Below the pieces are notes generated by a model. It had not been told where the DNA came from. It saw nothing but the letters and a program-made list of their open reading frames with translations, and did no database searches. A stretch of DNA of 64,000 nt from an uncultured Gemmatimonadales bacterium (GTDB lineage Bacteria > Gemmatimonadota > Gemmatimonadetes > Gemmatimonadales > GWC2-71-9), in assembly GCA_963825055.1 (NCBI GenBank), contig CAWGSK010000012.1:544001-608000 (forward strand), given 5' to 3'. The position numbers and the translations under genes are program-made. Below, piece by piece: positions 32,006 to 49,583 of this stretch (the stretch's first letter is position 1; every line of letters starts with the position of its first letter).

Positions 32006-32018
32006 TGAAGAGCGCCGG

Positions 32019-32047
32019 AATATAGATACCCCACTGCCCCCCTGGAA
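32019..32047 (-). promoter_or_regulatory. Putative sigma70 promoter for tRNA-Asp (possibly also the dcw cluster)
   Basis: TTCCAG (32047-32042), 17 nt, TATATT (32024-32019), then a GC-rich discriminator CCGGCGC, 13 nt upstream of the tRNA. Confidence 0.5.
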
Positions 32048-32052
32048 GTCCC

Positions 32053-33750
32053 CTACTTGCAGTACGCCTTGACCATGGAGTCGGTCCGCTTCACCAGGCT
32101 CCGCAGGTAACCCAGGTACTGGTCCACGAGGTCCGGCTTGACAGCCCGGCCCTTCGTGAGCGCGTCGAGTGACTCGTTCACCAGCGACTGTTCCTGCCGT
32201 GCCATATCGCACGACTTCGCCTTCTCCGTCTCGGGATCCATCTTCGAGACCTGGATGACCGTCGCGAGCCCGAGGACGTAGTTGGCATTCGGGTAGACCC
32301 GCCCCGCGGGATCGGCGAGCTTCAGGGCCTCCCGCGCCAGCATGGCCGCCCCCTCGAGGTCCTGCGGCTCCTGGAGGAGCGGCAGCGCGCCGTTCACCAG
32401 GATGATGGCCGCGTTCTCCTTGTCCTGCGGCGTGCCCCGCTGGCCGACGATCTCGAACAGCGGCAGCGCCTCCTTGACCCGCTTGGCGGTCGCCAGGTTC
32501 TGCGCCGCGGCCAGCGCCGGTGCGACCGTCGTCGTGTCCATCTGCAGCACGCGCTGGGTGACCACGAGCACGCTGTCCAGCTCGCCCGTCAGCGAGTACG
32601 CCGTCAGGAGCTGGCTGTTGAGGTCGACGTTCTGCGGGAACTTCGCGGCACCGGCCCGCGCCCACTTGAGCAGCCGCAGCGTGTCCGGCTGCTGGGCAGC
32701 CGTCACGGTGATCTTCATGTAGAAGGTGCTGTCGACCTTGGTCGAGTCGATCTGGTACGCCTGTTCCAGGGCGTCGACCGCGCAGCCGTAGTTGCTCTCG
32801 AAGATGCAGACATTGCTGAGCAGGTCGTAGTTGTCCGGATTGTACGGGTCGGCTTCGATCGCCTCCTCCACGGCCGCGCGCGCCGCGTCCGTGCGCCCGG
32901 TCTGGATGAAGTACTGGAACGCCTGCTTACGCAGTTCCTCGTTCGTCGGGGCCACCTGGATCATCTTCTGGTACGCCTCGACAACCTTGGCCGTATCGCC
33001 CTTCGCGTCGAACCGCGCGGCGAGCAGGGTCCAGGCCTTCAGGCTGAGCTCGTCACCCTCGACGGTCTTCTGCAGCAGCGCGATCACGGAATCGCCTGAC
33101 GCGTTGTTCTTGATCGCCATCTGAGTCAGGCAGTACCAGGCCAGCCCGTTTTCCGGGTCGGTCTTGAGCGCCTTCTTCGCCGCGTCCGAGGCCTTGTCCG
33201 GCTTCGTGGCGGAGTTGTCGATGCATTCCTTGGCGTCGGACATGGCGTCCAGCGCCGGGTTCAGCGCGTTGGCGGCCTGTTCCCCCAGGGACTGGGGGTT
33301 GGCAGTCGCGCCACTCACCACCACTGTCCGTCCGGCATCATCGTTGAGCCCGGCCAGTCGGGTGGTGAGACGCGTGGCGCCGCTGGTGCGTGCCAGCGTG
33401 GAGGAGACATAGGTCCGGGCCGAGATCGTGCCGGCAAATCTCCGCTGCACGACCGGGCTCAGGATGGCGTCGGGCGGATACCCGAACGTGGCGAGGGCGT
33501 CGTTCATCTGCTCGCGCTTGATCACCTGGAAGTTGCGCCCCCCGATCTTGTCGATCCGCTGCCGCATTGCAGAACCGACCTGCACCGCGGCCAGTGAATC
33601 GCCCGACGCGAAGGCATACGGGTTGGCCACCATGAGCCGCGGGGCGTTATTCACCCGCGTCGTGACCGCCCCCCTCGGAATCTGTGCCATCATGGGACTG
33701 GCGAGGAGCAGCCCCACCGCCGCGAGGACCATCGCACGCGAGTAACGCAT
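32053..33750 (-). CDS. Exported TPR-repeat protein
   Basis: Signal peptide (MRYSRAMVLAAVGLLLASPMMA|Q), many TPR-like helices (ALKTDPENGLAWY, AIEADPYNPDNY), Cys pairs, GGAGG RBS. Confidence 0.8.
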   Translation of the reverse strand: MRYSRAMVLAAVGLLLASPMMAQIPRGAVTTRVNNAPRLMVANPYAFASGDSLAAVQVGSAMRQRIDKIGGRNFQVIKREQMNDALATFGYPPDAILSPVVQRRFAGTISARTYVSSTLARTSGATRLTTRLAGLNDDAGRTVVVSGATANPQSLGEQAANALNPALDAMSDAKECIDNSATKPDKASDAAKKALKTDPENGLAWYCLTQMAIKNNASGDSVIALLQKTVEGDELSLKAWTLLAARFDAKGDTAKVVEAYQKMIQVAPTNEELRKQAFQYFIQTGRTDAARAAVEEAIEADPYNPDNYDLLSNVCIFESNYGCAVDALEQAYQIDSTKVDSTFYMKITVTAAQQPDTLRLLKWARAGAAKFPQNVDLNSQLLTAYSLTGELDSVLVVTQRVLQMDTTTVAPALAAAQNLATAKRVKEALPLFEIVGQRGTPQDKENAAIILVNGALPLLQEPQDLEGAAMLAREALKLADPAGRVYPNANYVLGLATVIQVSKMDPETEKAKSCDMARQEQSLVNESLDALTKGRAVKPDLVDQYLGYLRSLVKRTDSMVKAYCK

Positions 33751-34229: not shown

Positions 34230-35240
34230 TCAGGGCCCGGGTGCGGAGGGGCCTCCATCACTATGGCCTCCCGCGCCCGGAAGCGCGGTGGGTTCAGTCA
34301 CACCCTCGGGATCGTCAGGTGGCGGCGCGGGCCAGCCACGGTCCAGGGCGGCGCGCCTCGGCCGGTCCATGCGCCGGCGGTTCCAGGCGAGGAACCCGAG
34401 CGCGACGGCAATGACCCCCCACATCCCACCCGCCGCCAGCCAGATGAAGAAGTTGTACCGGCGCCGGAGCCCGCGATGCCATTCGCTTTCGAACTGACCG
34501 GTCGTGAGCCCGGTGGACGCACGGAGCGCCTGGTCGAAGTCCTCGTCGTTTACCAGGCGCGTCATGAACGGCTCGAGTTGTCCACCGGGAATCCGGCGCT
34601 GGATCTCCAGCACGGCCGACATGGCCAGCGCATAGGCGTCCTCCGCCTCGCTGGAGCGGCCACGCAGCCCGGCATCGAGCGTGCGGAAGTCCGGGAGCCG
34701 CCCGCGAAGAACCGTCCATGACAGGCGAGCCGCATCCAGCCGGTCCCACTCCCCGCTCGCCATGCCCGCATAGCCCTCGTCAAACCAGAGCGGCAGCCGG
34801 ACGTGCACCGCGTCGTGCAGCGCGAGGTGGGCCAGTTCGTGGCGCAGCGTCCTCGGGAGTTCGCCGAGATCGGCACGGAGAAGGATCGTCCGGCTTGAGG
34901 GAAAGGCGAGCGCCGCGCCCCACGATGGCGCCCTGCCCTGCGTGAAACGGCGCATCGCCGTCTCGTCCCGCACCACGACGAGTCGAAGGGGGCCCGGGTC
35001 GCGCCGGCCGAGTCCGGGCCAGTCAGCAGGGCGGTCGGCGATTTCGGCCAGGCCGACCGCAAGGGAGGCCTGCGCCTCCGGGGCTACCACCACCACGTTT
35101 CCCACGCGCACGGACCGGTAGCCCGAGTCGGGCTGCTGCGCCCGGACCGGGACCGTGACCGCGAGGAGAGCCGCGGTCAGGCCGAGCCGGAACGCGGCGG
35201 CTCGCCACCACCGGCGACGAGCTCGAGCATTTCCCGACAC
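34230..35240 (-). CDS. Membrane-anchored zinc metallopeptidase (peptidase MA-like/gluzincin)
   Basis: Signal peptide ending VRA|QQ; HELAH followed by LPLWFDEG; C-terminal TM segment followed by a basic RRR stretch; start uncertain. Confidence 0.8.
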   Translation of the reverse strand: MSGNARARRRWWRAAAFRLGLTAALLAVTVPVRAQQPDSGYRSVRVGNVVVVAPEAQASLAVGLAEIADRPADWPGLGRRDPGPLRLVVVRDETAMRRFTQGRAPSWGAALAFPSSRTILLRADLGELPRTLRHELAHLALHDAVHVRLPLWFDEGYAGMASGEWDRLDAARLSWTVLRGRLPDFRTLDAGLRGRSSEAEDAYALAMSAVLEIQRRIPGGQLEPFMTRLVNDEDFDQALRASTGLTTGQFESEWHRGLRRRYNFFIWLAAGGMWGVIAVALGFLAWNRRRMDRPRRAALDRGWPAPPPDDPEGVTEPTALPGAGGHSDGGPSAPGP

Positions 35241-36046
35241 CGTTTGCCCCACGGGTTGAAGCGGTTGGCCTTGGCGCCGTCCTCCCACGCCCGCCGCGCC
35301 TCGTTCCTCGCGCCGGAGAACCAGCGCGCGCGTCCCAGCTCGTACCACGCTTCCACCAGGTTCGGCCCTATCTCCAGTGTCTTACGGAAGAATGCCTCCG
35401 CATCCTCATACATGTCCCGCTCGAGATAGACCAGGCCGAGGTAGAAATGCGCGTAGAGCATGGCTTTCGGATCGTTGTTGAGCCGGATCGCCTTGGACAG
35501 GTGCTCGATGGCCTCACCAAAGATGCCCTTCTTCAGACAGATGTACCCGACGTTGATCCGGGCCAGCGAATTCTCCGGCTCGCGCATGAGCACGCGGGAG
35601 AAAGTTGACAGAGACTCGTCATATTCCTCGTGCAGCATCTGGGCCCAGCCGAGCAGGCTCTGCGCCTGGGTGTCCTCGGGCGCCAGGTCCAGCGCCTTGC
35701 GCAGCGCGTCGATGGCCCCGACGTGATCCCCGAGCGAGATGAGGCTCCAGCCCTTTTCGACAAACGTCGATGCTCCCAGGTGATCGGCGTGCAGTATCGG
35801 GCGGGCGGCGGCGAACTGGGGGCCCGAAGGCCGGTCGCCCCGGCGCGTCTGCTGCTTGTAGCGGTCCACCAGGGTGCGGATCTCCTCCCGCAGTTCGCCC
35901 AGTTCCTGGAGCGCCGTCTCCACTTCCTTGAAGAAACCGATGATGTCGCGCTTGATGGATTCGAGCGCGGCCGGGTCGGGCTCGGCCCCCAGTCGCCTGT
36001 CGAGTTCGGCGTACCGGGAACGGAACGGCTCGAGTGGGGCGCTCAT
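35177..36046 (-). CDS. Cytoplasmic coiled-coil + TPR protein
   Basis: N-terminal amphipathic helices, then about 5 TPRs (ALDLAPEDTQAQSLLG, AHFYLGLVYLE, PNLVEAWYELG); ATGA overlap with cheW. Confidence 0.85.
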   Translation of the reverse strand: MSAPLEPFRSRYAELDRRLGAEPDPAALESIKRDIIGFFKEVETALQELGELREEIRTLVDRYKQQTRRGDRPSGPQFAAARPILHADHLGASTFVEKGWSLISLGDHVGAIDALRKALDLAPEDTQAQSLLGWAQMLHEEYDESLSTFSRVLMREPENSLARINVGYICLKKGIFGEAIEHLSKAIRLNNDPKAMLYAHFYLGLVYLERDMYEDAEAFFRKTLEIGPNLVEAWYELGRARWFSGARNEARRAWEDGAKANRFNPWGKRCREMLELVAGGGEPPRSGSA

Positions 36047-36540
36047 GAGCGCTTCCGGCTCCCGCGCGCGTCGGCGGCCGCGGTGGCCACCCCGGCCAGG
36101 GCGAGCCGTTCCTTAGAACTGAGCAGCCGTCCGGCGTTCAGCATCAGGATGGTGCGCTCGCCGCGACGGACGATGCCCGAGAGGAACTCGGCGGCGAGCC
36201 CCCGCACGATGGGCGGCGGCGGGGTAATGGTGGTGCTGTCGATCCGGAGAACCTCGATCACCTGGTCCACCAGGACCCCGACCCGGTCATCATCCAGCAG
36301 CAGGATCATGATGCGGACCTCCTCGGTGAGGCCGGCGGGGACCTCCAGGCGCTTGCGCAGGTCCACCACTGGCGCAACGCCATCGCCGTAGCCGACGACA
36401 CCCTCCAGGAAATCCGGCGCATGCGGGACGCGGGACGGACGCTCATAGCGGAGAATCCGCTCGAGCTGGAAAATATCGAGTGCGAATTCCTGGTCACCGA
36501 CCCGGAATACCACAATCTGGATTTCGTCGTCAGTCGGCAC
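36043..36540 (-). CDS. cheW: Chemotaxis coupling protein CheW
   Basis: IVVFRVGDQEFALDI, VPHAPDFLEGVV, PVVDLRKRL, VGVLVDQVIEV; GTG start with GGAGG RBS. Confidence 0.9.
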   Translation of the reverse strand: MPTDDEIQIVVFRVGDQEFALDIFQLERILRYERPSRVPHAPDFLEGVVGYGDGVAPVVDLRKRLEVPAGLTEEVRIMILLLDDDRVGVLVDQVIEVLRIDSTTITPPPPIVRGLAAEFLSGIVRRGERTILMLNAGRLLSSKERLALAGVATAAADARGSRKRS

Positions 36541-36979
36541 CACTGGCCTCCACCGGCTGCAACCTGGCCGCGAGCAGTTCGAGATCGAGCACCGGCACGT
36601 AGGCTCCTGCCTGGCCGGCCAGTCCTGCCGCCCACGGCAGCGGGGCGCCCTGTTCCACCGGACGCAGTTCTTCGTGAATGATCGCGACGGCGTCGTCCAC
36701 CTTGAGGCAGAGCACCCGCTCATGCACCCGCATGATCACCCCCATTCCTCCCATCGCCCCGTCTGCATCGTCGTCCCCGGCCGGTCCGAGCAGCCGGGAC
36801 AGGCTGAAGAGCGGGACCAGCCGGTTGCGCGCCGGGACGACCCCGAGCAGCGCCGTCGCGGTCGCCGGCACCGGGAAGTGCTCCGGCACGTCCACTACGG
36901 CTTCGACCGACTCCACCGGGAGCCCGATGCGGCGTCCGCCCGCCACCACGAGCAGGAAGGAGGCGACGCGAGGCGTCAT
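36530..36979 (-). CDS. cheW: CheW-like protein (divergent)
   Basis: [49 protein letters not shown]. Confidence 0.8.
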
Positions 36980-38037
36980 GCGACGGCCCGGTAGAGCAGC
37001 CCCGAGACATGCTCGGCGATGCGGCCGAGGGGCAGGACGACGTTCGCGCCGCCGGCCTGGACCGCGGCATTGGGCATTCCGTAAACCGTAGAAGTCGAGC
37101 GATCCTGCGCCACGCCGTAACCCCCCGCGTCGTGAATAGCGCGCAGGCCCGCCGCGCCGTCCCGCCCGAGTCCGGTCAGGACCACACCGATCGCACGGGG
37201 GCCATAAATCCGGCTGATGCTCTCGAAGAGCGGATCGGCGGCGGGGCGGACGCCCCAGATGGACGGTGACTGGTCGAGTGTAATGACGGGGCCGGCGGGG
37301 CCATCACCCACGCGCATATGATAACCGCCCGGGGCGACATAGGCGGTATCCGCCTGCACCACCGTGCCCTCCGACGCCTCCACGACGGCGAGCGCGCTCT
37401 GCGCGGCGAGGCGCGCGGCCAGGCCGCGGGTGAAATCGGGTGGCATGTGCTGCACGATGAGCACCGCAGCCCCGGTGCCGGTGGGCAGGTGCGGCACGAC
37501 GTCGGCCAGCGCGCGCGGCCCCCCGGTGGAGGCGGCGATGGCGACGGCGCGGGTCGCGGCCCCGATGGAACGCGAGGGCCGGGGAGGCGCCTGTGAGGGT
37601 CGGGCGAGGACCGGAAGCCGGCCGATGTCGGCCGCGCGAGCGGCGTCGAGCGCCTCCAGCAGCCGCGGTGCCAGCGCCCGGATGCCCTCCCGGCTCGGGC
37701 GGTTCTCCTTGGCCACGATCTCCACCGCGCCGAGTTCCAGCGCGCGGATCGCGCCCGCGCTGCCCGACCCGGCGTGGGAGCTGAAGACGACGATAGGGGT
37801 GGGGATCTCCGACATGATGTACCCGATCGCGCCCGCCCCGTCCAGCTGGGGCATCTCCAGATCCATCGTGATGAGGTCGGGGTGGTACTGGTGCACCTTC
37901 TGGAGGCCGTCGATTCCGTTCCGCGCGGTGGCCACGACGGCATACCGGCCGGAGTCATTGATGATCTCCGTGAGCATCTGCCGGATGAGCGCACTGTCAT
38001 CCACGATCAGCACCTTCGGCCGCTCATCAGATGACAT
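36976..38037 (-). CDS. cheB: Chemotaxis response-regulator methylesterase CheB
   Basis: REC domain (VDDS, TMDLEMP) plus ASTGGP, VQHMP and LTGLGRDG (Ser/His/Asp triad), VYGMP. Confidence 0.94.
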
Positions 38038-38506
38038 ACTCGCCCTGTGCCACCGTGCGCACGCGGATCTCTCCGGTGTCGACACTGAACCAGAGAGACC
38101 GGCCCGCGTTGCCACCGACGAGCTCACCGGTGATGGGGATCGCGTGCTGGTTCAGCACGCGGCGGACCGAGACCACGTTGCGTTCTCCCATCTGGATGGA
38201 CCCCGGCGCGCTCAGCAGGGCGAAAAGGCCCGCCCCGCCAATCAGCCGGGCAGTAATGCGACCCGCATCGGCGCCCCGGGCCTGCATGGCCACGACCAGC
38301 GCCGGCACGGCGGTCTCCGGGACCTTGGCCGGGTTATCGCTCCGGGCCAGCGTGCGGGACGGCAGCATGATGTGCGCCAGGCCGCCCACCTTGCCCGCGG
38401 GGTCGTAGAGCGCGATCGCCACGCAGCTGCCGAGGCCCAGGGTGACCAGCGTATCCCCCGCGCCCCCGGTGTTCATGTCGGCCACCCGTACCATGATGTC
38501 GCTCAT
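38027..38506 (-). CDS. cheD: Chemoreceptor glutamine deamidase CheD
   Basis: [36 protein letters not shown]. Confidence 0.92.
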
Positions 38507-39318
38507 CCGGCGAGCCGGTAAATGCGTTCACGGACATCCACTATCTCAAAACGTTCACGGATGGGGCCGAGTATGGTTTCCACCTTTCCCAGGACGAGGA
38601 GCCCACCCGGGGCGAGGGCACGGGCGAACCCCTCAAAGATGCGGTCCTGCCCCGCGCGGTCGAAGTAGATGAGCACGTTGCGGCAGATGATCATGTCGTA
38701 GGGCGCCGCAACCGGCGGGTCACGATGCAGGTCGAGCCGGGCGACGCGCACCCGCCGCCGCAGCCGCTCGCTGATCCGGAGCTGCCCGCCATCCGGTTCG
38801 GTGTAGCGCTCGACGAGGGCCGGAGGAGTATCCTTGAAGAGGATCGTGGGATACAGGGCCGCCGCCGCGCGTTCCAGCGAGGCGCGGTCGATGTCAGTTG
38901 CATCCACCGTGACGCCCCCGAGTGCCCCGGGCCGACCGTTGCGTTCCGCGACCTCGGCCACCGCCATGATCAGGGAGTACGGCTCCTCGCCTGAGGCGCA
39001 CCCGGCGCTCCAGAGGCGGATCGGAACCCGCTCGAGCAGGCCGGCGAGCAGGTCGTCGCGGAGCCGGGCCCACAATTCCGGGTTCCGGAAGAAGGTGGTC
39101 ACGTTGATCGTGAGCACGTCGGCCAGCTTCCCGTACTCCGCCGGGTCGCGCTCCAGGACCTTGAGGTAGTCCTCGTAGCTTTCCACACCGTGTGCCCGCA
39201 TCCGGACCGCGATCCGCCGCTGAAGGCAGCGCGGCTTGTAGGACGCCGGGCAGAGCACCCCGTGGTCCGCGATGACTCGCGTGAGCGCCTCGAATCCGGG
39301 ATCCACCGGCGTGCTCAC
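38503..39318 (-). CDS. cheR: Chemotaxis methyltransferase CheR
   Basis: RRIAVRMR, TINVTTFFRN, WSAGCASGEEPYSL, ATDID, CRNVLIYF; GTG start overlaps the upstream stop. Confidence 0.94.
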   Translation of the reverse strand: MSTPVDPGFEALTRVIADHGVLCPASYKPRCLQRRIAVRMRAHGVESYEDYLKVLERDPAEYGKLADVLTINVTTFFRNPELWARLRDDLLAGLLERVPIRLWSAGCASGEEPYSLIMAVAEVAERNGRPGALGGVTVDATDIDRASLERAAAALYPTILFKDTPPALVERYTEPDGGQLRISERLRRRVRVARLDLHRDPPVAAPYDMIICRNVLIYFDRAGQDRIFEGFARALAPGGLLVLGKVETILGPIRERFEIVDVRERIYRLAG

Positions 39319-40928
39319 TGCCCCGCCCCCAGCGTCTCGAGGTTGGTGCGGGCCAGCTCGTGCCCGGGATTGATCGCCGTCGCCCGCTCCCAGCAATGTC
39401 GCGCCGTGTCGGGGTCACGCTGCCGGTACGCGATATTGCCGAGCTTGAAGTAGAGGTCGTCTCCCAGCTCGGGCGCGAGGCGCGCCGCCCGCTGGTACGC
39501 GTCGCGGGCTTCGTCATACCGTCCCGCGCGGTACAGCAGGTCGCCGAGGTTCTTGGTGATCTGCGGAAGGGTTGGGGCCTCCTCCAGCGCCTCACGGACG
39601 AGCGACTCGGCCTCGCCCACATCGCCCCGCAGCTCCAGCAGGACGGCGAGATTGTTCCGGAGGACCGGGTTCGAGGGCCATGCCGCGATCCCCTCGCGGC
39701 CGACTTCCACCGCCTCGTCCACGTCATCCTGCAGGGCGGCGGACATCATGGCTGCCCAGAACCACAACGGCGATGGTGTCGCGTCCCCCCAGGCCTCGCG
39801 CGCATCGGTGAGCCGGTCCCGGGCCTTCGCGGCATCGTCCCTCCGGAGCGCCAGGATGGCCCAGCCGGTCAGCGCGGCGGGGCCTGCGCCCAGGTCCACG
39901 GCCCTGGCATACGCCCCCTCAGCGTCTTCATCCTGTCCGAGGTGCTCGAGGGCGACACCGAGATTGTGGCACACGTCGGCCCGGTCGCCGCCCAGGTCCC
40001 GGGCGCGGGCGAGGGCGTGCACGGCGTCGCCCCAGCGGGACTCCCGCAGCGCAATCTGGCCGAGCTGCCGGGGCGCGTCAGGATCAGCTGGACGCAGTTC
40101 CTCCACCCGACGGTACTCGCGCTTCGCTTCCTCGAGCATGCCTGTCTTGTAGAAGGCGACTCCCAGGTTCCGGTGCTCCTCCACCCGGACATCCCGCGCC
40201 CGCGGTGCCGCCGTGGCGGTGGTGCCGGTCCGGTGCAGGAAGCCCGCGGTGAGGAGGCCGTAAAGGGCCTGCCCGACCTCGAACTCCACCAGGCCGGCGT
40301 CCTCGATGAGCTGGCGGATGTCACGGGTGCCGTCCAGCAGGGGCAGCAGCCGCTGCTGGTGCGGCGACAGGCTCACGTCGGAACGATCGACGTGGTCGCT
40401 GTCCAGGGTGAAGATGATGTCGAAGCTGGGGATTTTCTTCTCGATAATGCTCCACTCGTCCACCCGCCTGGCACCTTCGAGGAGGAGCGACTCGGGATTG
40501 ATCTGGACGAGGAAGTCCTGCTCGTCGGGCGTGATGCCCGCCTCAAAGTTGAACGTGCCGCTGTTCCAGGTGAACAGATAGTAGACCGCCTCCTCGATCT
40601 GGAGCCGGATATACGACTCCAGGTCGGCCCGTGAGATCGCGCCGTCATCAACCAGGATCTCCCCGAGTTTCCTGCCGCGGTCGGTCGCCTGGCGGGCCAT
40701 CGCCTGCTCCAGTTGCGACTGGCTGATCTGCCCGTTCTTGACGAGGATATCGCCCAGGCGGTCCCGGCGGTTTACGATGGACGCGTAGGTGATCCGGCCA
40801 CGCTCGAAGTAGATGTATCCGAAGTTGTGGCGGTCGGCAACGGCAAGACAGCCGGTCTTCCGTCCGAGCGCGAGCAACTGGAGGACGTCCGGGAGGCTCG
40901 CTTCCTTGAGACTGCCGCGGATCGCCAT
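39315..40928 (-). CDS. DUF4388 (PATAN-like) + tandem MshEN-like motif + TPR protein
   Basis: GSLKEASLPDVLQLL...KTG.L...IYFERGRI; RLGDILVKNG...Q and KLGEILVDDG...Q; WNSGTFNF, LLLEGARRVDEW; C-terminal TPRs. Confidence 0.85.
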   Translation of the reverse strand: MAIRGSLKEASLPDVLQLLALGRKTGCLAVADRHNFGYIYFERGRITYASIVNRRDRLGDILVKNGQISQSQLEQAMARQATDRGRKLGEILVDDGAISRADLESYIRLQIEEAVYYLFTWNSGTFNFEAGITPDEQDFLVQINPESLLLEGARRVDEWSIIEKKIPSFDIIFTLDSDHVDRSDVSLSPHQQRLLPLLDGTRDIRQLIEDAGLVEFEVGQALYGLLTAGFLHRTGTTATAAPRARDVRVEEHRNLGVAFYKTGMLEEAKREYRRVEELRPADPDAPRQLGQIALRESRWGDAVHALARARDLGGDRADVCHNLGVALEHLGQDEDAEGAYARAVDLGAGPAALTGWAILALRRDDAAKARDRLTDAREAWGDATPSPLWFWAAMMSAALQDDVDEAVEVGREGIAAWPSNPVLRNNLAVLLELRGDVGEAESLVREALEEAPTLPQITKNLGDLLYRAGRYDEARDAYQRAARLAPELGDDLYFKLGNIAYRQRDPDTARHCWERATAINPGHELARTNLETLGAGQ

Positions 40929-42898
40929 CAGGACAGTCCCTCGAGCAGGCGGTCCGCGGGCGTTGGCCAGTCCCAGATCATCTTCTCCCGATTCCGCACG
41001 ACACCGCGCCCGATGACCCCGCTCGTCCGCGAACCATTGCGCCGTGGGGGACGCGGCGCCGCGCCCTCGAGCACGTCGCGGGCGAACCCCGCCGAGAGGG
41101 TGGCGGACTGGGACTCCGCCTTACGGGCCAGGCGCTGGACGATCTCCTGGAGCGCACGCACACTGTCCACTGCGTGGCCCGCGAGGTACTGGACCAGCTC
41201 CGGGTCAGCGGCTTCACCATCGAGCATGTTCCGCACAATGGCCCGCCGGACTTCCGGGCCGGGCACGGGCAGCTCCGCCACGAGGCCACCTTCGAGCCGG
41301 CTGGCGAGGCGCGGGGCGAGACCCTCGAGTTCGCCGGGAGGCCGGTGCGAGGTGAACATCATCTGCCGCCCCTGCTCCTGCAGATGGTTGAACAACCAGA
41401 AGAGTTCCTCCTGGGTACGGTCGGTGCCGGCGAGCAGGTCAATATCGTCCAGGAGGAAGGCCGTGGCTCGGCGGTAGCGTTGCCGCCACCAGTCCACCCG
41501 GTCCTGGTCGATGGCCGCGATGAGTTCTTCCACGAACTCCCGCGCATTGAGGCACGCAACGACCGCATCGGCCTGGGCCGCCAGCAGGTTGCCCACCGCG
41601 TGCAGCAGGTGAGTCTTCCCGGTGCCGGGGGGGCCGACCAGTACCAGCGGGTTGTAGCGCTGGCCGGGGGAGTCAGCCACGGCCAGTGCGGCCCGCACGG
41701 CCACCCGGTTCGTCTCGCCCTCGGCAAAATCCTCCAGCTGCCAGTGGGGGGAGGGCGCCGGCAGCGGGGTAGCTCCTTCCCGCGCCGCGGCGACCAGTTT
41801 CTCGACCTCGGCCACGCGGTCCGGGTCGCGGAAGGCCGGGTCTCCGGCCACGGACGGGTCAATGGCCTCCGCCTCGGCGGCCAGCAATCGCAGCCGCTCG
41901 ATGTCGGTTTCGAACCGCTCGACTTCCTGCTCGACGTCCCGCTCGCCCGGGTCCTCGAACAGGTCGCGGAGCCGCGCCACGCGATAGCCCTCGCCCTCCC
42001 AGCGGGCGATCGCTTCCCCGAGACGCACGCGCCACTGCTCAAGCTGTCGCGCGACCGTGGTCGAGATCTCGCTCAGGAAGGAGCCGAACTCATCGTCCGA
42101 GGACGGCGTGAAGGCCGGCCCGTCTTCCCCGCCCTCCGGCGGCAATGCGTCGGCGTCCGCGGGAGGCTCCACCCCGGCACGATCGGTACGCAGGATCTCG
42201 CGGGCGCGGGCTTCGCCGAGCGGTTCCTGGTTGGCCATCTGCCAGGCGATGAGCCGGTTGAGCGCGCCGAGCAGTTCCCGGATGCTGGCGACGTCGAGCG
42301 TGGCGGCGGCCTCGATGACACCGGGGTCGAACGTGAGCCCGCGGCTCTCGGCGTGCCGGCGCAGGATGGCGACCCGGGTTTCGTAGTCCGGCGCGGCAAT
42401 ATCAATCACCAGTCCCCCGGCGAAGCGGCTGATGAGCCGCTCGTCCAGCGACTCGATTTCCGATGGGGGGCGGTCGCTCGTCAGCACAATCTGGTGGCCG
42501 GCGGTCTGCATGGCATTGACCAGCCGGAGCAGCTCGGCCTGCATCTCGCGACGCCGGGCCAGGAACTGCACGTCGTCGAGCAGGAGCAGGTCGAGTTCCG
42601 CGTAGCGGCGGCGGTAGGCATCGCCCTGCCCGGCCCCGACCGCGGCGTGGAACGCCTCGACGAAGTCATCGAGGGTCTGGTAGGCGATCCCGAGACCGGG
42701 CGCGATCGTCCGGGCGGCCTGCGCGATCGCCATCAGCAGGTGCGTCTTGCCGAGCCCGGGACCGCCATAGATGAAGAGGGGGTTATACACCACGCCGGGA
42801 CTCTCGCTCACCGCACGCGCGGCGGTGGCCGCAAGCCGGTTGGCCGCCCCGACCACGAAGGTCTCGAACCGGAATCGGTGATTCAGCTCGAGTGTCAT
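40928..42898 (-). CDS. Protein with two tandem DnaA/Hda-type AAA+ domains, lacking DnaA domains I/II and IV
   Basis: Domain 1: FETFVVGAAN, YNPLFIYGGPGLGKTHLL, LLLDDVQFL, TSDRPP, RLISRFAGGL, IRELLGAL. Domain 2: YNPLVLVGPPGTGKTHLL, LLDDIDLL, TQEELFWLFN, TSHRPP, RLASRLEGGL, VRALQ. Confidence 0.9.
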   Translation of the reverse strand: MTLELNHRFRFETFVVGAANRLAATAARAVSESPGVVYNPLFIYGGPGLGKTHLLMAIAQAARTIAPGLGIAYQTLDDFVEAFHAAVGAGQGDAYRRRYAELDLLLLDDVQFLARRREMQAELLRLVNAMQTAGHQIVLTSDRPPSEIESLDERLISRFAGGLVIDIAAPDYETRVAILRRHAESRGLTFDPGVIEAAATLDVASIRELLGALNRLIAWQMANQEPLGEARAREILRTDRAGVEPPADADALPPEGGEDGPAFTPSSDDEFGSFLSEISTTVARQLEQWRVRLGEAIARWEGEGYRVARLRDLFEDPGERDVEQEVERFETDIERLRLLAAEAEAIDPSVAGDPAFRDPDRVAEVEKLVAAAREGATPLPAPSPHWQLEDFAEGETNRVAVRAALAVADSPGQRYNPLVLVGPPGTGKTHLLHAVGNLLAAQADAVVACLNAREFVEELIAAIDQDRVDWWRQRYRRATAFLLDDIDLLAGTDRTQEELFWLFNHLQEQGRQMMFTSHRPPGELEGLAPRLASRLEGGLVAELPVPGPEVRRAIVRNMLDGEAADPELVQYLAGHAVDSVRALQEIVQRLARKAESQSATLSAGFARDVLEGAAPRPPRRNGSRTSGVIGRGVVRNREKMIWDWPTPADRLLEGLS

Positions 42899-43497
42899 CC
42901 GAGGTTCCCCCCGGCGGCAAGCCGCTGGAGCACGCCTTCGGAAATGCCGCGAAGTGTCTCGAAGACGCCTCCGCCGCGGAGCGCGTCGGCCGGGTAGCTC
43001 CGCACGTTGCGGAAGTTGAGGGCGTCATCCATCGCGGCGCGGTCCAGGACCAGGTCGCGCGGCAGGTCCTGCTTGTTGTACTGCAGGACGAGGGGAAAAT
43101 GACGGAGCTCGATGCCCTGCTGCAGCAGGTTGGCCTGCAGGTTCTGGAGGCTCTCCAGATTCTCGTCGAACCGACGGGCCTGACTGTCGGCGACGAAGAC
43201 GACGCCATCCGCGCCCTGAAGGACGAGCTGGCGGGTGGCATTGTAGTACACCTGTCCCGGCACGGTGTAGAGCTGGAATCGCGTGGAAAACCCGGAGATG
43301 GTCCCGAGGTCGAGCGGCAGGAAATCAAAGAAAAGCGTCCGGTCCGCCTGGGTGGCGAGCGACACCATGCGGCCTCGCCGCGCATCCGGCACGCGACCGT
43401 AAATGTACTGCAGGTTCGTGGTCTTCCCGGAGCGGCCCGGGCCGTAGTACACGATCTTGCAGGTGATTTCACGTGCGGTAAAGTTGACCAGCGACAT
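42895..43497 (-). CDS. mglA: MglA-family small Ras-like GTPase
   Basis: REITCKIVYYGPGRSGKTTNL, DRTLFFDFLP (intrinsic Arg finger), LYTVPGQVYY, DGVVFVADSQ, QYNKQDL. Confidence 0.95.
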   Translation of the reverse strand: MSLVNFTAREITCKIVYYGPGRSGKTTNLQYIYGRVPDARRGRMVSLATQADRTLFFDFLPLDLGTISGFSTRFQLYTVPGQVYYNATRQLVLQGADGVVFVADSQARRFDENLESLQNLQANLLQQGIELRHFPLVLQYNKQDLPRDLVLDRAAMDDALNFRNVRSYPADALRGGGVFETLRGISEGVLQRLAAGGNLG

Positions 43498-43500
43498 CGG

Positions 43501-43962
43501 CTAGCGTCCAAACAGCGAGCGGAGGCTCGCGTTGAGGTCACGTTCAAAGTCGGGCGCCAGGGCGGTCCGGCTGGCCGTCTCCGGCGGCGCGGCGGCCTCG
43601 AGCTGGGTGACCAGGTCGTCGAAAAAGATCTGGACGAGTCCCAGCGACGTCTCGTTGCCATAGACGACGAGCGCGATCCACCCACCCCCCGGCATCTCGA
43701 AGCGCGAGAGGAAATGGCCATGGGTGTGCCCCTGGTGCGCGACGCGCTCGAACGGTGGCCAGTCCATGATCCGCGCGAGTTCCTGGGCGGACGCCACGAT
43801 GCCCGCGCCCAGCGCCGCCGTTGACATCACGTCAATCGCGCGGGTAAACCCATGCTGCGCGATCACCTGGCCCGTCGTCGTCATAAGGAGGGCGACACGC
43901 GCGGAAGACTCCCGCAGGAACGCGTTGAGCGGGCCGGCCACCCAGGGTTCGACCGTGCGCAT
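43501..43962 (-). CDS. mglB: MglB-like Roadblock/LC7 protein
   Basis: GQVIAQHG..IDVMSTAALGAG, LARIM...F...HQG, VVYGNETSLGLV, C-terminal ...LRSLF helix; immediately upstream of mglA. Confidence 0.82.
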   Translation of the reverse strand: MRTVEPWVAGPLNAFLRESSARVALLMTTTGQVIAQHGFTRAIDVMSTAALGAGIVASAQELARIMDWPPFERVAHQGHTHGHFLSRFEMPGGGWIALVVYGNETSLGLVQIFFDDLVTQLEAAAPPETASRTALAPDFERDLNASLRSLFGR

Positions 43963-44312
43963 CAGGCCACCCGCTCCGCGGCGCGCGCCATCTCAAGCCT
44001 CACGCGCCCCGCGTTGGCATCCCGCTCACCGATGGCGACAATCACGATTTCCTCTCCCGCCGGCATGACGAACACGGCTCCTCCGGCGGCCTGCAGGTGC
44101 AGGAAGGCCGGTGCTCCGGCCGCCGCCACACGGGCGGCGGCCTCGAGCCGGGCCAGCAGGCTGGCCGCCAGTGCGGCCAGGGCCGGACCGCGGACATCCT
44201 CCATGACCGACTCGGCGATCACGATCCCGTCGCGCCGGCTCACCAGCATGGCGCCCTGGATCCCGCTGAGGCACACCAGCAGCTCGAGGGCTGCCTCGTG
44301 TTCGGCGATCAT
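43962..44312 (-). CDS. Stand-alone Roadblock/LC7 protein
   Basis: GIQGAMLVSRRDGIVIAE, ALAALAASL, ANAGRVRLEM; ATGA overlap with the upstream gene. Confidence 0.8.
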   Translation of the reverse strand: MIAEHEAALELLVCLSGIQGAMLVSRRDGIVIAESVMEDVRGPALAALAASLLARLEAAARVAAAGAPAFLHLQAAGGAVFVMPAGEEIVIVAIGERDANAGRVRLEMARAAERVA

Positions 44313-45127
44313 GGGCCCGACTCCAGCCATTCGCGGGCCGCCCGCGCCGCCCGCACCGCCGTCAGGGCTACCCGACCCATCGGTTGCGAGGCCTCGCGTG
44401 CCACAAGGAGGAGCGTGTCTTTCGTGGGGGAGACCAGGACGAAATTGGCCCGCTCCGTCTCCACAGCCAGGCTCTCCCATTCACCGAGCTCGAGCAGGCG
44501 CGCCGCGCGGGATGCCTCCCGCGACACCCCAGCCAGCTCCGCGGAGACCTCGTCACTTACGTCCACCCGCTCCGGAGTGCGCAGCCGGCCGTCAAGCCGC
44601 CGGCCGGCCGCATCCACGAGCAGGAGTCCGCTCGCCCCCCCTGGCAGAGTGGCAAACGCCGGACCGGGCTCCGGCGCCTGAAGCTCATCCGATGGGCCGT
44701 TGACGGGGGTGGTGACCGGAGGGCGAGCCATCGCCGCGCGCACCCGGCGCACGGCGGGCTCCAGCGAGGCATCGTCCGGCAGGGCGGTCCGGGCATACTC
44801 CAGATGCTCGAGTGCGCGGGGGAAGTCCTGCGCCGTGAAGTAGAGGAAGCCGATGCCCTTGTGGGCGCCCGGATGCGCAGGGTCGAGGCGGAGGGTGATG
44901 TCCCACTCGTCGAAGGCCCGCTCGAAGTCGCCCTGGTCGGCGAGGATCCGGGCGTAGAGATCGTGCGCCGCCGGGAGCTCGGCATAGCGACCCAGCCCCT
45001 GCAGGGCAACCTTCGCCGCGGCCTCCAGCCGGCCGTCACGGCGCAGTGCCTCGCCCAGCTCCAGGAAAACCAGGCTGGTCGGGTCGGCGGCCAGTTCCGC
45101 CGTCAGCGCGCGAATGTCGTCAGCCAC
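44309..45127 (-). CDS. TPR + C-terminal Roadblock/LC7-like protein
   Basis: DPTSLVFLELGEALRR and further TPRs, a Pro-rich linker, then GLLLVDAAGRRLDG...LGEWESLAVET...PMGRVAL. Confidence 0.78.
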   Translation of the reverse strand: MADDIRALTAELAADPTSLVFLELGEALRRDGRLEAAAKVALQGLGRYAELPAAHDLYARILADQGDFERAFDEWDITLRLDPAHPGAHKGIGFLYFTAQDFPRALEHLEYARTALPDDASLEPAVRRVRAAMARPPVTTPVNGPSDELQAPEPGPAFATLPGGASGLLLVDAAGRRLDGRLRTPERVDVSDEVSAELAGVSREASRAARLLELGEWESLAVETERANFVLVSPTKDTLLLVAREASQPMGRVALTAVRAARAAREWLESGP

Positions 45128-46265
45128 TCAAGCCTCGCAAGACATGCTCCAGAGTCCCGGCCGCGTCACGGGCGGCCCGAACCGATTCGTCGTGTCCCAT
45201 TTCCTCAGGTCCGCGGGCACCAAGCCATTGCTCCCAGTGCTCCCGCGCCAAATGGAACCGTCCCAGTTGTGCCGCGGCGGTTCCCGCGTGGCGGTGTGCC
45301 GCCGCCAGCCCCGGGTCGAGCTGCAGCGCGCGCTCGGATGCACCCAGGGCATCCGCCGAGCGTCCCGCCGCGAGGAGGACCCGGGCCAGCACCAGATGCG
45401 CGAGGGGCTGTTCCGGATGCACGACGGCGGCGTCCCCGGCCGCGACCAGCGCAGCCTCGACCCGCCCGGCGGCAAGGTCGTCCTCCGCGCGTGCGATGGC
45501 CATGGCCAGCCCGCCCTCTCTCCCGATCTCAGCGGCCGGAGGCACCGCCGTGTCCTCAAGGAGGATAATGCCCGCCGTGGCCAGGCCGAAGAGCGTCTTC
45601 GCGACCTCGAACTCGGAGCGGTTGAGCGTGATGGACAGGTCATGGACGTTACGGCTGCCGTCAATGGAGGCGAGCACCTCCCACTCGAACGGCATGAGGT
45701 CCAGCGGCCCCGCGTCGGTTCCCACGGGCGCCAGCCGGGCGACGATGCCCAGATGCGGAATGCGGGTCTCGATGCGTGACCACTCGTCGATCCGCCGGGC
45801 GGCTTCCATCACGAGGGCCTCAGTCGGGATGCGGACGGCCGCTTCCATCGACATGCGGGTGGGATCGCCCTCCTCGAAGGAGAAATATCCCTCCGACCAT
45901 CCGAGGAGCTCGAACACGACCTCCTCGGTCTGCCGTCGGATAATCCGGTCCACCTCGCGGCGGCTGATCGACCCGGCCTCGACCAGGAGATCGCCGAGCC
46001 GGCGCGTGTCGCCGGCCTCCTGCAGGGCGCGCACGCGCGACAGTTCCTCCTCGGACACCTTGCCGGCTTTCAGCAGGAGACCGCCCAGCGGGTGTGGGTT
46101 GGTCCGGATCTCAGCCCCGATCACCGCGCCGCTCTCGAAATACACCGTGCCCGCGTTCTGTCGCAGCGCCGAGCGCACGCGGAGCACACCGGTCTTCCGG
46201 CTCAGGTCGAGGAGCTGGAAGACATCGTGAATGCCCAGCTCGCGGAGGGGGCCCTCGATCGCCAT
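45120..46265 (-). CDS. DUF4388 (PATAN-like) + MshEN-like motif + TPR protein (paralog of 39315-40928)
   Basis: GPLRELGIHDVFQLL..SRKTGVL, VYFESG, RLGDLLVEAGSI...Q, WSEGYFSF, LVMEAARRIDEW, C-terminal TPRs. Confidence 0.85.
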   Translation of the reverse strand: MAIEGPLRELGIHDVFQLLDLSRKTGVLRVRSALRQNAGTVYFESGAVIGAEIRTNPHPLGGLLLKAGKVSEEELSRVRALQEAGDTRRLGDLLVEAGSISRREVDRIIRRQTEEVVFELLGWSEGYFSFEEGDPTRMSMEAAVRIPTEALVMEAARRIDEWSRIETRIPHLGIVARLAPVGTDAGPLDLMPFEWEVLASIDGSRNVHDLSITLNRSEFEVAKTLFGLATAGIILLEDTAVPPAAEIGREGGLAMAIARAEDDLAAGRVEAALVAAGDAAVVHPEQPLAHLVLARVLLAAGRSADALGASERALQLDPGLAAAHRHAGTAAAQLGRFHLAREHWEQWLGARGPEEMGHDESVRAARDAAGTLEHVLRGLSG

Positions 46266-46268: not shown

Positions 46269-48947
46269 TCAGGCCGTCTGGCGTGTGAGGATGTACTGGA
46301 GGTCGCGCGCACTGCGGCTCTCGGCCCGCGCGGCCAGCGCGAAGGATGATTGCGGATGCAGCCGGACCAGCCGCTCCCATGCGCGCACCGCCTCGGGGAA
46401 CCGGCGCAGTCGTGTCAGGCCGACGCCCGCGTAGTAGAGGCCGTCAGCCCGGTCCGGCACGAGGCGAAGCAGGCGCAGGAAGGCCTCGATGCCACGCTCG
46501 GTCCGCCCCGCGTCGAGCAGGGTGCGGCCGAGCAGGGCGAGCGACTCGAGGTCGGACGGGTCACCCTCGAGCGCGCCCACGAGCAGGCGGATGGCCTCGG
46601 CATGTTCGCTGTTACGCCGGAGGAGGTCGGCGAGCGCGTGAATCGCCTCGGCATACGTCGGCAGGAGGTCGAGCGCGTGCTCGTAGGCCATGCGCGCGGC
46701 GATCCAGTTCTCCCGCCGTTCCTCCAGTTCCCCGAGCTCGCGCCAGAGCTGGGCCCGGCCGGTATCGAGCTGCAACGCGCCCTGGCAGGCCTCGACCGCC
46801 GCGTCCACCTCGCCAAGCTGGGCGCAGATCCGGGCCTGGAGCTGCAGCAGGTCGGCACGACCGGGCGCGCGGGCCCGCCCGGCCCGGATCAGATCGAGGG
46901 CCGCAACGGGATCACCGGTGCGGTGCCGGACCGTGGCTGCCGCCAGCAGGCCGTCGACGTTGCCCGGATCCGAGGCGATCAGGGCCTCGGCCAGGGGCGC
47001 CGCCTCCCGGGAGCGGTCCAACGCCACGAGGGAACGCACCTCGCCAAGCAGCGCGTGAGGATCGTCGCCCAGTACCTCGCGCGCCTCGCGGTAGCGTTCG
47101 AGCGCCTCGCCGTGCAGGCCGCGCCGGGCGTACACGTCGGCCAGGAGCAGCCGGGCGGGCGCCTCGGGCGCGCCGCGCGCGATGGCGCGGTCCACCTCCG
47201 CCGCCGCCCGGTCGAGCATCCCCTTGTGCAGGCAGTCGCGCGCCAGGGCAAGCGGGTCCCCCTCGGGCGCGGGACCCGGCTCTCCCGCCCGCGGCGCGAG
47301 GTCGCGGAAGATCTGGTCGAGCAGCCGGGGGTCGAAGCTGAAGGCCTCGCCCACCTCCGCGGCACTTACGTCGCCGGAGATCTCCGGCACGATGGAGATG
47401 GTCGGGTCCTCGTACTGGAGGTCAATTGTCAGCGAGAACTTCTGCGGCACGTAGTACGGCTCCAGCTCGAGGGCGCGCTTGGTCTCCCGCAACGCCCCGT
47501 CGAAGTCGCCGAGTTGGCTCAGGGTGAAGCTCAGGTTGTAATGCGCGGAGGCGTTGTCAGGCGCGCCGTCCACGGCGCGGGCAAAGGCATTGCGTGCGTC
47601 CTCGAAGCGCTTGAGTTCAGTGAGGACGAGGCCGATTCCGTTCCACGCGAGCGGGTGATCGGTGTGATCCTCGAGCACGCGCTGGAACGCCTCAAGCGCG
47701 AGCTGGAGCCGCTGGCGGTGCAGCAGGAGGAGCCCGAGGTTGAGGCGGGCCGTCACGAGATCCGGCGTGCCCCGCAGGGCTTCCTGGAACGCGTCGGCCG
47801 CCACTTCCGTGTCCACGCCGTGCGCGAGCAGGACGCCGAGGTTGTTCCAGGCGAGGGCATACCCGCCGTCGAGATCAATCGCGCGCCGGTACGAGCGGGC
47901 TGCTTCGTCCCGGCGGCCTGCGTGGTGGAGGCAGACTCCCCGCTCGTTCCAGAGCTTGGGCGAATCCTCGAACTCGCGGATCAGTTCCTCGTAGAGGTCC
48001 AGGGCGGCCGAGAGGTCGCGGCGCAGCAGGTGGACCTCGGCGATTGCCTGCATGGCCAGGCGGCGATCCTCCCCGTGTTCCAGGGCGAGGCGATATTCGC
48101 GGAGCGCCTCGGCGTGGTATCCCTTCTGCCGGAACGCGAGACCAAGGTTGTAGTGGGCGAGGGCGCCGCCCTGGCTGATCCCGGGCCGGGTGGGCCCGGC
48201 TGGGCGGGATTCCCCGACGTGCTCCGGTTCGCGCAGTGAAAGGTTGGTGTGCGCGCGGGCGAAGGTCGGGTTCAGGGCGATGGCCTGCTTCGTGGCCGCC
48301 TTCGCCGCCTCGTGCTCACCGAGATCGCCGTACAGGAAGGCCAGGAGGTAATGCGCGTCGGCGTTGTCGGGGTTCAGGCGCAGCGCCGCCTCGAGCGCCG
48401 TGCGGGCGGGATCGTTCAGGCCGCGGTGGTACAGCGCCTCGCCGAGGTAGAACAGGGCAAGCGGGCTGTCGGGGTCGAGCTCGACGGCATGCTGGAAATG
48501 GTCCGTGGCCGCCTCGAGGTCACCGCTGGCCTTCTCGGCGAGGCCGAGCTGGATGAGGGTGGCCGGATCGTCGGGACGATGGCCCAGCAGCAGGGTGAAC
48601 TCGCGGATGGCCTCGGGGTGGTGGCCCAGGGCGCCGTAGATGCGGCCCAGTTCCCAGCGTGCCTCGAGGTCCTCACCCGAGTCCCGAATCCTCTCGCCGA
48701 GCTCGGCGACGCGACGGTCGTAGTAGCCGGTGTTGCGGTAGGCGATCTCCAGATTGGCCTGCGCGACCTGCATGCGGGGGTCGAGTTCCAGCGCGCGGGT
48801 GAACTCGCTGACCGCCTCCGGGACCAGTCCTTTCTGGAAATAGAGGACGCCCAGGTTGTTGTGGGCGCCCGCGTCGGAAGGGTCGATGCGCCCGGCGAAG
48901 GAGCGGAGGACCGCAAGATCGCGCTCCGACAGCACCTGGCCGGCCAT
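46269..48947 (-). CDS. Large cytoplasmic TPR-repeat protein (892 aa)
   Basis: Many canonical TPRs (AHNNLGVLY, AHYNLGLAF, AWNNLGVLL, AWNGIGLVL, AHYNLSFTL); no signal peptide; central non-TPR acidic segment. Confidence 0.88.
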   Translation of the reverse strand: MAGQVLSERDLAVLRSFAGRIDPSDAGAHNNLGVLYFQKGLVPEAVSEFTRALELDPRMQVAQANLEIAYRNTGYYDRRVAELGERIRDSGEDLEARWELGRIYGALGHHPEAIREFTLLLGHRPDDPATLIQLGLAEKASGDLEAATDHFQHAVELDPDSPLALFYLGEALYHRGLNDPARTALEAALRLNPDNADAHYLLAFLYGDLGEHEAAKAATKQAIALNPTFARAHTNLSLREPEHVGESRPAGPTRPGISQGGALAHYNLGLAFRQKGYHAEALREYRLALEHGEDRRLAMQAIAEVHLLRRDLSAALDLYEELIREFEDSPKLWNERGVCLHHAGRRDEAARSYRRAIDLDGGYALAWNNLGVLLAHGVDTEVAADAFQEALRGTPDLVTARLNLGLLLLHRQRLQLALEAFQRVLEDHTDHPLAWNGIGLVLTELKRFEDARNAFARAVDGAPDNASAHYNLSFTLSQLGDFDGALRETKRALELEPYYVPQKFSLTIDLQYEDPTISIVPEISGDVSAAEVGEAFSFDPRLLDQIFRDLAPRAGEPGPAPEGDPLALARDCLHKGMLDRAAAEVDRAIARGAPEAPARLLLADVYARRGLHGEALERYREAREVLGDDPHALLGEVRSLVALDRSREAAPLAEALIASDPGNVDGLLAAATVRHRTGDPVAALDLIRAGRARAPGRADLLQLQARICAQLGEVDAAVEACQGALQLDTGRAQLWRELGELEERRENWIAARMAYEHALDLLPTYAEAIHALADLLRRNSEHAEAIRLLVGALEGDPSDLESLALLGRTLLDAGRTERGIEAFLRLLRLVPDRADGLYYAGVGLTRLRRFPEAVRAWERLVRLHPQSSFALAARAESRSARDLQYILTRQTA

Positions 48948-49574: not shown

Positions 49575-49583
49575 ACCCACTCC

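Follow-up and report, generated by a model that had tools for sequence, protein, structure and literature searches.

The AAA+ core of DnaA is, to our knowledge, regarded as a dedicated replication engine, and the relatives of it that we know to lack a DNA-binding domain, Hda, DnaC and IstB, still serve DNA transactions. For the polarity GTPase MglA, Group 1 has been listed in Gemmatimonadetes and PATAN neighbours noted, and the portion of that survey considered here mentions no AAA+ neighbour of MglA (PMC4316618). Here we analyse a gene that places a doubled DnaA core directly beside mglA. It lies on the minus strand of a 64,000-nucleotide stretch of contig CAWGSK010000012.1 from an uncultured Gemmatimonadales soil bacterium (the whole stretch is called the window below), and its open reading frame at 40928..42898 encodes a 656-residue protein, P0002, with two DnaA-type ATPase modules in one chain. 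The tandem DnaA core lacks DNA-recognition parts and its gene sits in a chemotaxis and polarity cluster, and so its ATP switch probably now serves signalling in place of replication. The model we favour, with slightly better than even confidence, is that the tandem protein, a paralogue of the DnaA ATPase core that is specific to this lineage and does not act in replication, serves as an ATP-controlled adaptor or switch in an MglA/Che/PATAN polarity module. Our literature search found no published description of this tandem DnaA-type protein.

The original prediction, made from the sequence alone, placed two copies of DnaA domain III at 40928..42898. These coordinates are right, with the gene running on the minus strand; the plus-strand translation of the interval is also free of stop codons, and the description fits the minus-strand protein only. 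All of the motifs quoted in that prediction were located in the translation: Walker A as GGPGLGKT (residues 45-52, module 1) and GPPGTGKT (422-429, module 2), Walker B as LLDD (105-109 and 482-485), the sensor I region as SDRPP (141-145) and SHRPP (517-521), box VII as RLISRF (154-159) and RLASRL (530-535), sensor II as IRELLG (206-211) and VRALQ (580-584), and the tail motif REKMIWDWP (637-645). Pfam returns two Bac_DnaA stretches (E 2.5e-97) and neither DnaA_N nor Bac_DnaA_C, in agreement with the proposal that the protein has two domain III copies and no domain I or domain IV. The NCBIfam DnaA model TIGR00362 matches P0002 twice, each time only over model positions 103-336 of 437, which is domain III. 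The total of 458.7 bits against a cut-off of 343.9 is the sum of these two matches, and passing the cut-off therefore reflects duplication and not membership of the full-length DnaA family. The N-terminus of P0002 begins at the LN.R.RF motif, which opens domain III.

An AlphaFold2 model of P0002 (27 aligned sequences; mean predicted local distance difference test score, pLDDT, 84.9; predicted template-modelling score, pTM, 0.47) has two base-plus-lid AAA+ modules, a disordered linker, a helical insert and a disordered tail. Module 1, which its sequence and structure matches identify as a full DnaA domain III, base and lid included, spans residues 5-237 (42188..42886; this and all features below are on the minus strand). 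It is followed by an acidic, proline-rich, disordered linker at residues 238-270 (42089..42187; pLDDT <50 at 241-270) and a family-specific insert at residues 271-382 (41753..42088). Module 2, a diverged DnaA/Hda-like AAA+ domain that corresponds to the second Bac_DnaA stretch, occupies residues 383-612 (41063..41752). The basic, disordered tail at residues 613-656 (40931..41062; pLDDT <50 at 615-656) ends in the peptide R-E-K-M-I-W-D-W-P...R-L-L-E (residues 634-656; 40931-40999). The acidic linker and helical insert that had been read from the sequence are both present in the model, the former disordered at 241-270 and the latter as confident helices at 271-374. The overlaps claimed for the two ends of the gene are also found: its start overlaps the mglA stop (ATGA; the junction reads ctcggATGAcactc) and its stop overlaps the next ATG (TGATG; the junction reads tccTGATGgcg).

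The two modules are unequal. Sequence identity between module 1 and domain III of Bacillus subtilis DnaA is 41-42% (8bv3, E 3e-53), and module 1 superposes on the same domain in 8btg_B over 237 residues with a root-mean-square deviation of 1.4 Å (Z 31.5). Module 2 finds its best solved relatives by sequence in Hda (E 5e-8 to 1e-7); among its listed structural matches IstB (Z 18.7) ranks highest once the DnaA/Hda entries are set aside. It is 38.6% identical to module 1 and 35.5% identical to the resident DnaA of the genome. We counted residue conservation in a 27-member family alignment onto which residue roles in B. subtilis DnaA were mapped from the available part of a published study (PMC10721633). 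In module 1, K51, D108/D109, the sensor I residue D142, the box VII residue R154, the arginine finger R158 and the sensor II residue R207 are each kept in 27/27 members. In module 2 the Walker A lysine, the first Walker B aspartate and the box VII residues R530 and R534, the latter the arginine finger, are likewise invariant; the second Walker B aspartate is kept in 26 of 27 members and the sensor II arginine in 25 of 27. Sensor I had been read as retained in both modules, and this holds for module 1 and fails for module 2, where the SHRPP of P0002 is not conserved: the position is Asp in 7/27 members and His in 2/27 (P0002 among these), and the aspartate is gone in 20/27. Further losses differ between lineages. 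The whole module 2 lid is absent in loci of the L098-L104 and L107 type, lineages that keep sensor I, and module 2 of the REC-fused member P0213 lacks the Walker A threonine and Walker B. Averaged over pairs of members, identity reaches 62.7% in module 1, 51.6% in module 2 and 48.2% in the insert; it drops to 21.7% in the linker and 28.1% in the tail spacer and rises again to 57.7% in the terminal peptide. All catalytic motifs are thus kept in module 1, and those missing from module 2 differ from one lineage to another. We envision module 1 as the working ATP switch and module 2 as a partly degenerate regulatory partner with its arginine finger kept; because the finger is retained, the covalent pair would mimic one contact of a DnaA-DnaA filament and form a composite ATP site.

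Arginine fingers that are invariant in both modules could also serve a protein that acts on DnaA itself. A coupler of this kind would act on DnaA-ATP in the manner of Hda, by joining, capping or inactivating it, and would tie initiation to polarity or division; the original prediction had offered a version in which the pseudo-dimer co-polymerises with DnaA, caps it or inactivates it. The DnaA/Hda clade includes both modules, and in the AlphaFold2 model two helices follow strand 2 in each of them (76-88/92-100 in module 1 and 452-464/468-476 in module 2), at the site where DnaA has its initiator-specific motif. The Hda N-terminal clamp-binding motif is of the Q-L-x-L type, and a 14-sequence alignment shows no motif of this type at the N-terminus, in the linker or in the tail. 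The Hda model TIGR03420 scores 189.5 bits summed over the two modules, below its cut-off of 194.8, and the HdaA models NF006571, NF005982 and NF051883 score 65-73 bits, far below their cut-offs of 268-300. With domains I and IV missing as well, and with the signalling neighbours and fusion partners described below, we found no positive support for the proposed link to replication and consider such a coupler quite unlikely.

Outside the ATPase modules, the end of the tail is conserved. In the terminal peptide E638, W644, R650 and E653 are invariant (27/27) and K639 and P645 occur in at least 90% of members; the consensus ..EK.V W.WP....RL.E.. extends over the last ~23 residues and is kept in all 11 of the variants examined. 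The peptide stays even where an acidic low-complexity stretch stands in place of the module 2 lid, and it is also kept in the long forms P0204, P0215 and P0216. A conserved peptide that ends a disordered tail, with a TPR-bearing protein constantly encoded beside it, points to a putative docking role. The helical insert is conserved too, being kept in 39/39 related loci, and it folds into confident helices when modelled alone (pLDDT 86). A search with the insert alone recovered 44 proteins of 595-665 residues, all of which contain Bac_DnaA and, where a taxon is named, all of which come from Gemmatimonadota. An ESM Atlas search with residues 262-386 gave no usable match, and a fold search against 48,161 chains returned generic helical bundles only, five with Z of at least 5 and none with Z of at least 8; the best structural match, an EzrA spectrin-like repeat (4uy3_A, Z 6.5), is not informative. 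The linker varies in length and sequence among homologues. In two near-complete genomes (G127, L109:8823-10819; G198, L110:9965-11943) the gene lies in two frames and is broken within this disordered linker; in G127 a 232-residue module 1 reading frame is followed after 5 nt by a 430-residue frame that covers the insert, module 2 and the tail. The gene may be truly split in these genomes, or the break may be a frameshift error.

The tandem protein is not the replication initiator of its genome. The source assembly is a metagenome draft of 3.53 Mb in 35 contigs, 87% complete with 6% contamination, and it contains three Bac_DnaA matches, of which two are the tandem gene and the third is on contig 20. 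There, as the original prediction required, a canonical dnaA with DnaA_N, Bac_DnaA and Bac_DnaA_C is followed by dnaN, and it holds the only Bac_DnaA_C of the genome; this separate dnaA-dnaN pair with the sole DNA-recognition domain is the reason we set the tandem protein apart from initiation. JGI labels many of the homologues "chromosomal replication initiator protein (DnaA)", a label that is likely a mis-annotation inflating dnaA counts in Gemmatimonadota and that can mislead origin prediction in these genomes.

A protein search recovered more than 120 full-length homologues of 609-679 residues that are 57-88% identical to P0002, and every taxon-bearing name among them is Gemmatimonadota or Gemmatimonadales. 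A search of one genome per species covered 596 relatives, of which we considered the best 80 loci; among these, the only full-length tandem matches are in Gemmatimonadota records (L005-L031 and L063), some of them labelled Gemmatimonas sp. (L026 and L063) and one Longimicrobiales, and the remaining loci contain ordinary dnaA genes from other phyla. The two-module form recurs in related genomes, and an assembly chimera is ruled out by the full-length homologues, the related loci and the phylum-wide matches. In a survey of 200 sampled Gemmatimonadota genomes we scored as positive any whole-protein match better than any single dnaA, with a threshold of E <1e-62 that was set after the table had been viewed. 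The tandem gene was found in 132/200 genomes, mostly of one order; four of the positives (G057, G182, G157 and G097) are unpublished, and without these the count is 128/196. By GTDB family code, positives number 94/96 in the source genome's own family (f1), 26/38 and 3/3 in two families of the same order (f2 and f3), and 4/4, 1/1, 2/23 and 2/3 in four more families of the same class (f4, f5, f7 and f8); f6 (0/11) and f9 (0/2), also of this class, and three families outside it (f10-f12, 0/19) have none. About one third of the sampled genomes have no tandem match and nearly all of these still match at the level of an ordinary dnaA, which also speaks against a role in coupling to replication. Parts of the stretch occur in five soil-metagenome DNA runs from two studies; no RNA sequencing runs containing it are listed.

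To place the modules we built a quick maximum-likelihood tree of 57 rows (LG+G4, DnaC outgroup). Module 1 and module 2 each form a clade (support 100 and 99), and the Gemmatimonadota DnaA proteins form their own clade (support 96) inside a group of all canonical DnaA proteins (support 84). Neither module nests in the Gemmatimonadota DnaA clade, a further point against a DnaA-directed coupler. The branching order among module 1, module 2, the DnaA groups and Hda is not resolved by this tree. The module 1 and module 2 subtrees are congruent, and the fusion therefore predates the spread of the family; the two modules lie together on the same side of a branch (support 74), and an origin by internal duplication is only weakly favoured. 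A recent duplication of the resident dnaA was also considered and is not supported, given the separate Gemmatimonadota DnaA clade; the approximately unbiased test does not reject a tree that joins this clade to module 1 (p-AU 0.34).

Fusion forms in a representative protein library point in the direction of signalling. P0213 (738 residues) is a collinear family member with the tandem DnaA modules and a C-terminal REC domain. P0202 and P0209 (1876-1990 residues) combine an N-terminal MshEN domain with two distant DnaA modules, and their MshEN also matches residues 54-178 of the PATAN-TPR protein encoded next to the tandem gene (E 8e-7 and 2e-5). P0246 and P0249 (876-1368 residues) join TPR repeats to one DnaA ATPase module. 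All of these forms are single-member clusters and each may thus be a gene-calling artefact, with two of the architectures recurring in independent clusters. The fusion forms found in this library carry no replication or DNA-recognition domain, and fusion to REC, TPR and MshEN speaks against a replication coupler.

Genome context provides a further line of evidence. The tandem gene is a fixed member of a Gemmatimonadota supercluster of ~20 genes that combines a Che pathway with MglA/MglB, Roadblock proteins and PATAN/TPR adaptors. We compared 28 related loci by tblastn, 6 of which end before the downstream flank and one of which lacks the upstream flank, together with a non-random set of 13 further loci picked for unusual C-termini or split genes. 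Directly upstream, mglA is found in 27/27 assessable loci of the first set and 11/13 of the second (38/40); directly downstream, a gene for a PATAN-TPR protein of 537 residues in the window (PATAN-TPR537) is found in 22/22 and 13/13 (35/35), making the PATAN-TPR protein the most constant partner. The CheW, CheY, CheA and CheC genes of the window also lie upstream in L098-L103 and L108-L110, and Che genes are on both flanks of the cluster. The conserved neighbours include no replication gene. A repurposed polar scaffold, which the original prediction had offered as its alternative, fits this signalling and polarity context better than its replication proposal.

In the window the minus-strand order is CheW, CheY, CheA, CheC, an 892-residue TPR protein, a 381-residue PATAN-TPR protein, TPR-Roadblock, Roadblock, MglB-like, MglA, the tandem gene, PATAN-TPR537, CheR, CheD, CheB, CheW, a 289-residue TPR protein, a peptidase-MA-like protein, a 565-residue TPR protein, and then mraW, ftsI, murE and the rest of the cell-division and cell-wall operon. 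The gene upstream of the tandem gene (42895..43497, 200 residues) is a true mglA by sequence, matching Myxococcus xanthus MglA 6h17 (E 1e-72) and Thermus MglA 3t12 (E 3e-66). It is preceded by the MglB-like (43501-43962), Roadblock (43962-44480) and TPR-Roadblock (44309-45127) genes, assigned by Pfam Robl_LC7 and weak NCBIfam MglB matches and with uncertain start codons. Pfam assigns the genes further upstream: the 381-residue PATAN(DUF4388)-TPR protein (45120-46265), the 892-residue TPR protein (46269-48947), CheC/CheX (48954-49580), CheA (49584-51608 as the longest open reading frame), a CheY-like REC protein of 148 residues (51469-51915) and CheW (51915-52604). The CheY-like frame overlaps the first ~140 nt of the longest CheA frame, and the true CheA start is therefore probably further downstream. 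On the other side, PATAN-TPR537 (39315..40928; Pfam DUF4388 and TPR) carries an MshE-type cyclic di-GMP-binding motif at residues 57-107 (NCBIfam NF053729, 55.3 bits against a cut-off of 38). Next come CheR (38503-39396), CheD (38027-38506), CheB (36976-38127) and CheW (36043-36723), followed by the 289-residue TPR protein (35177-36046), the peptidase-MA-like protein (34230-35348) and the 565-residue TPR protein (32053-33750), all assigned by Pfam. The order of the Roadblock, PATAN-TPR, TPR and Che genes on either side of mglA and the tandem gene is conserved in the compared loci.

Two further observations concern the GTPase. In one subtype of the cluster (L011, L013, L015, L017, L018 and L020) there is no CheR/D/B/W between PATAN-TPR and the 289-residue TPR protein; here the GTPase is 37-46% identical and has lost its DRT and PGQ catalytic motifs (five loci with an upstream flank; L018 has none), and the tandem ATPase is still ~50% identical. 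Separately, a second, free-standing MglB-MglA pair, made up of a Roadblock protein (163 residues) and an MglA paralogue (224 residues, 64% identical over residues 1-149), lies beside recR on contig 12 at ~190.3-191.5 kb (L112:993-2175), and most sampled genomes of the phylum also have two MglA-type matches.

The near-constant position of mglA, whose reading frame overlaps that of the tandem gene in the window, raises the possibility that the tandem protein binds MglA-GTP or MglA-GDP directly, as effector, exchange factor or polar receptor, in place of RomR/RomX of Myxococcus. We regard this as decidedly improbable, since the tandem protein contains no known MglA-binding domain, the gene and its PATAN-TPR neighbour persist without an adjacent mglA in L105 and L106, and the tandem ATPase is maintained in the subtype whose GTPase has lost PGQ and DRT. 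A complex prediction of the tandem protein with MglA, run without controls, scored 0.21, below the mark of 0.32, and speaks neither for nor against binding.

How a DnaA-type switch could serve this module can be sketched as follows. In the adaptor model, the ATP state of the protein would set its conformation or oligomeric state, and the C-terminal peptide would tether it to a peptide-binding partner, most likely the TPR part of the adjacent PATAN-TPR protein. The tandem protein would then gate or time the output of MglA and the Che pathway onto a polar machine, probably type IV pili. We propose pili because the PATAN domain binds PilB1 and PilC in Synechocystis, according to the portion of a preprint considered here, and because PilB/PilT-type ATPases are encoded in the genome, in which no flagellin was detected at 87% completeness.

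Several points weigh against this adaptor model. The output onto type IV pili is a guess from gene content, and the interactions of the tandem protein are all putative. The relative placement of the modules is not confident (pTM 0.47), which makes an intramolecular composite site a conjecture. Both arginine fingers would be available to other AAA+ proteins, DnaA among them. In L105 and L106, from another family of the same class, PATAN-TPR is kept and the adjacent mglA is absent. The supercluster ends immediately ahead of mraW and the dcw operon, both in the window (30946-33750) and in L102, L107 and L109, the 4/4 loci that reach that far, and no mraZ-sized gap precedes mraW in the window; this adjacency could indicate a role in cell division instead and also favours a coupler to the cell cycle. 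Finally, module 2 retains, across the 27-member alignment, the equivalents of the B. subtilis DnaA residues I190, I193, R202, K222, E223 and E228 that contact single-stranded DNA (I460, I463, R472, K at 492 in 23/27, E/D493 and E498), and an adaptor that binds only proteins should not need them.

These residues lead to two readings in which the protein still touches DNA. M. xanthus FrzCD binds the nucleoid and brings signalling complexes there, as reported in the portion of a study considered here (PMC5716589), and by this precedent the AAA+ face of the tandem protein could bind DNA without sequence recognition, in an ATP-dependent manner, with the nucleoid as a platform for a receptor-less Che/MglA complex. 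The cluster (32053-52604) encodes CheA, CheY, CheC, CheR, CheB, CheD and two CheW and no methyl-accepting chemotaxis protein; the three such proteins of the genome are on contigs 4, 13 and 30. The arginine-rich tail would also suit a nucleoid-bound scaffold. We nevertheless consider this unlikely: the I190 equivalent in module 1 is His in 23/27 members, the contact residues of module 2 may be kept for structure within the initiator-specific motif, a DNA-binding domain is absent, the tail spacer is only 28.1% identical, and lineages without the module 2 lid would be without sensor II. In the other reading the DnaA core is a sensor that still reads DNA or DnaA-ATP. Here ATP would govern the binding of module 2 to the nucleoid, to unwound DNA or to DnaA, and the PATAN-TPR, MglA and Che proteins tethered through the tail would convert this state into a decision on polarity or division. 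Such a sensor, which we hold to be quite improbable, would connect the state of the chromosome or of replication directly to front-rear or budding polarity in the phylum. Some Gemmatimonas species bud.

If the adaptor model is correct, this conserved, phylum-restricted tandem form in a chemosensory/MglA cluster would be a non-replicative use of the DnaA engine. It would also add a new part to the polarity systems of bacteria, and this in a major soil phylum whose cell biology has hardly been touched. The combination of one intact and one motif-losing module offers clear point mutants at K51, K428, R158 and R534, along with deletion of the tail.

Compared with DnaA (PF00308, TIGR00362; PDB 8bv3/8btg, 2z4r and 1l8q/2hcb/3r8f), both modules of the tandem protein share Walker A and B, the box VII arginines and the sensor II arginine. 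The protein differs from DnaA in having two modules per chain and no domain I, II or IV, and it adds the helical insert and the C-terminal peptide; its gene is in a signalling cluster and not beside dnaN, with the true dnaA elsewhere. Hda and HdaA resemble it in that they are DnaA-type AAA+ proteins without a DNA-binding domain and with the arginine finger kept, as R158 and R534 are here. Hda and HdaA are single domains of ~230-250 residues, whereas the tandem protein has two modules in 656 residues and a gene context unrelated to replication.

DnaC, DnaI and IstB belong to the same AAA+ initiator clade and are precedents for its members acting as ATP-controlled adaptors. Unlike the tandem protein, they are single modules with helicase- or transposase-binding N-termini, and the Pfam results for the window include no helicase or transposase gene near the tandem gene. 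An assignment as an IS21 IstB helper was rejected: the model NF038214 gives 108 bits against a cut-off of 200, there is no adjacent transposase, and Pfam IstB_IS21 is only a secondary match.

The closest parallels for the cluster as a whole are the M. xanthus Frz system with MglA/MglB/MglC-RomR/RomX and the PATAN regulators of type IV pili. With the former, the Gemmatimonadota cluster has in common MglA, an MglB-like protein, Roadblock paralogues and CheA, CheW, CheY, CheR and CheB. The portions of papers on the Myxococcus Frz/Mgl module considered here mention no tandem DnaA-type ATPase, and the considered portion of the Synechocystis PATAN preprint mentions no DnaA-type ATPase; in Gemmatimonadota all of these components are in one cluster together with PATAN-TPR and the tandem DnaA-type ATPase. 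With PixG, PixE and PatA the cluster shares the PATAN (DUF4388) domain, which is fused to REC in those regulators and to TPR repeats in the two Gemmatimonadota proteins whose genes flank the tandem gene.

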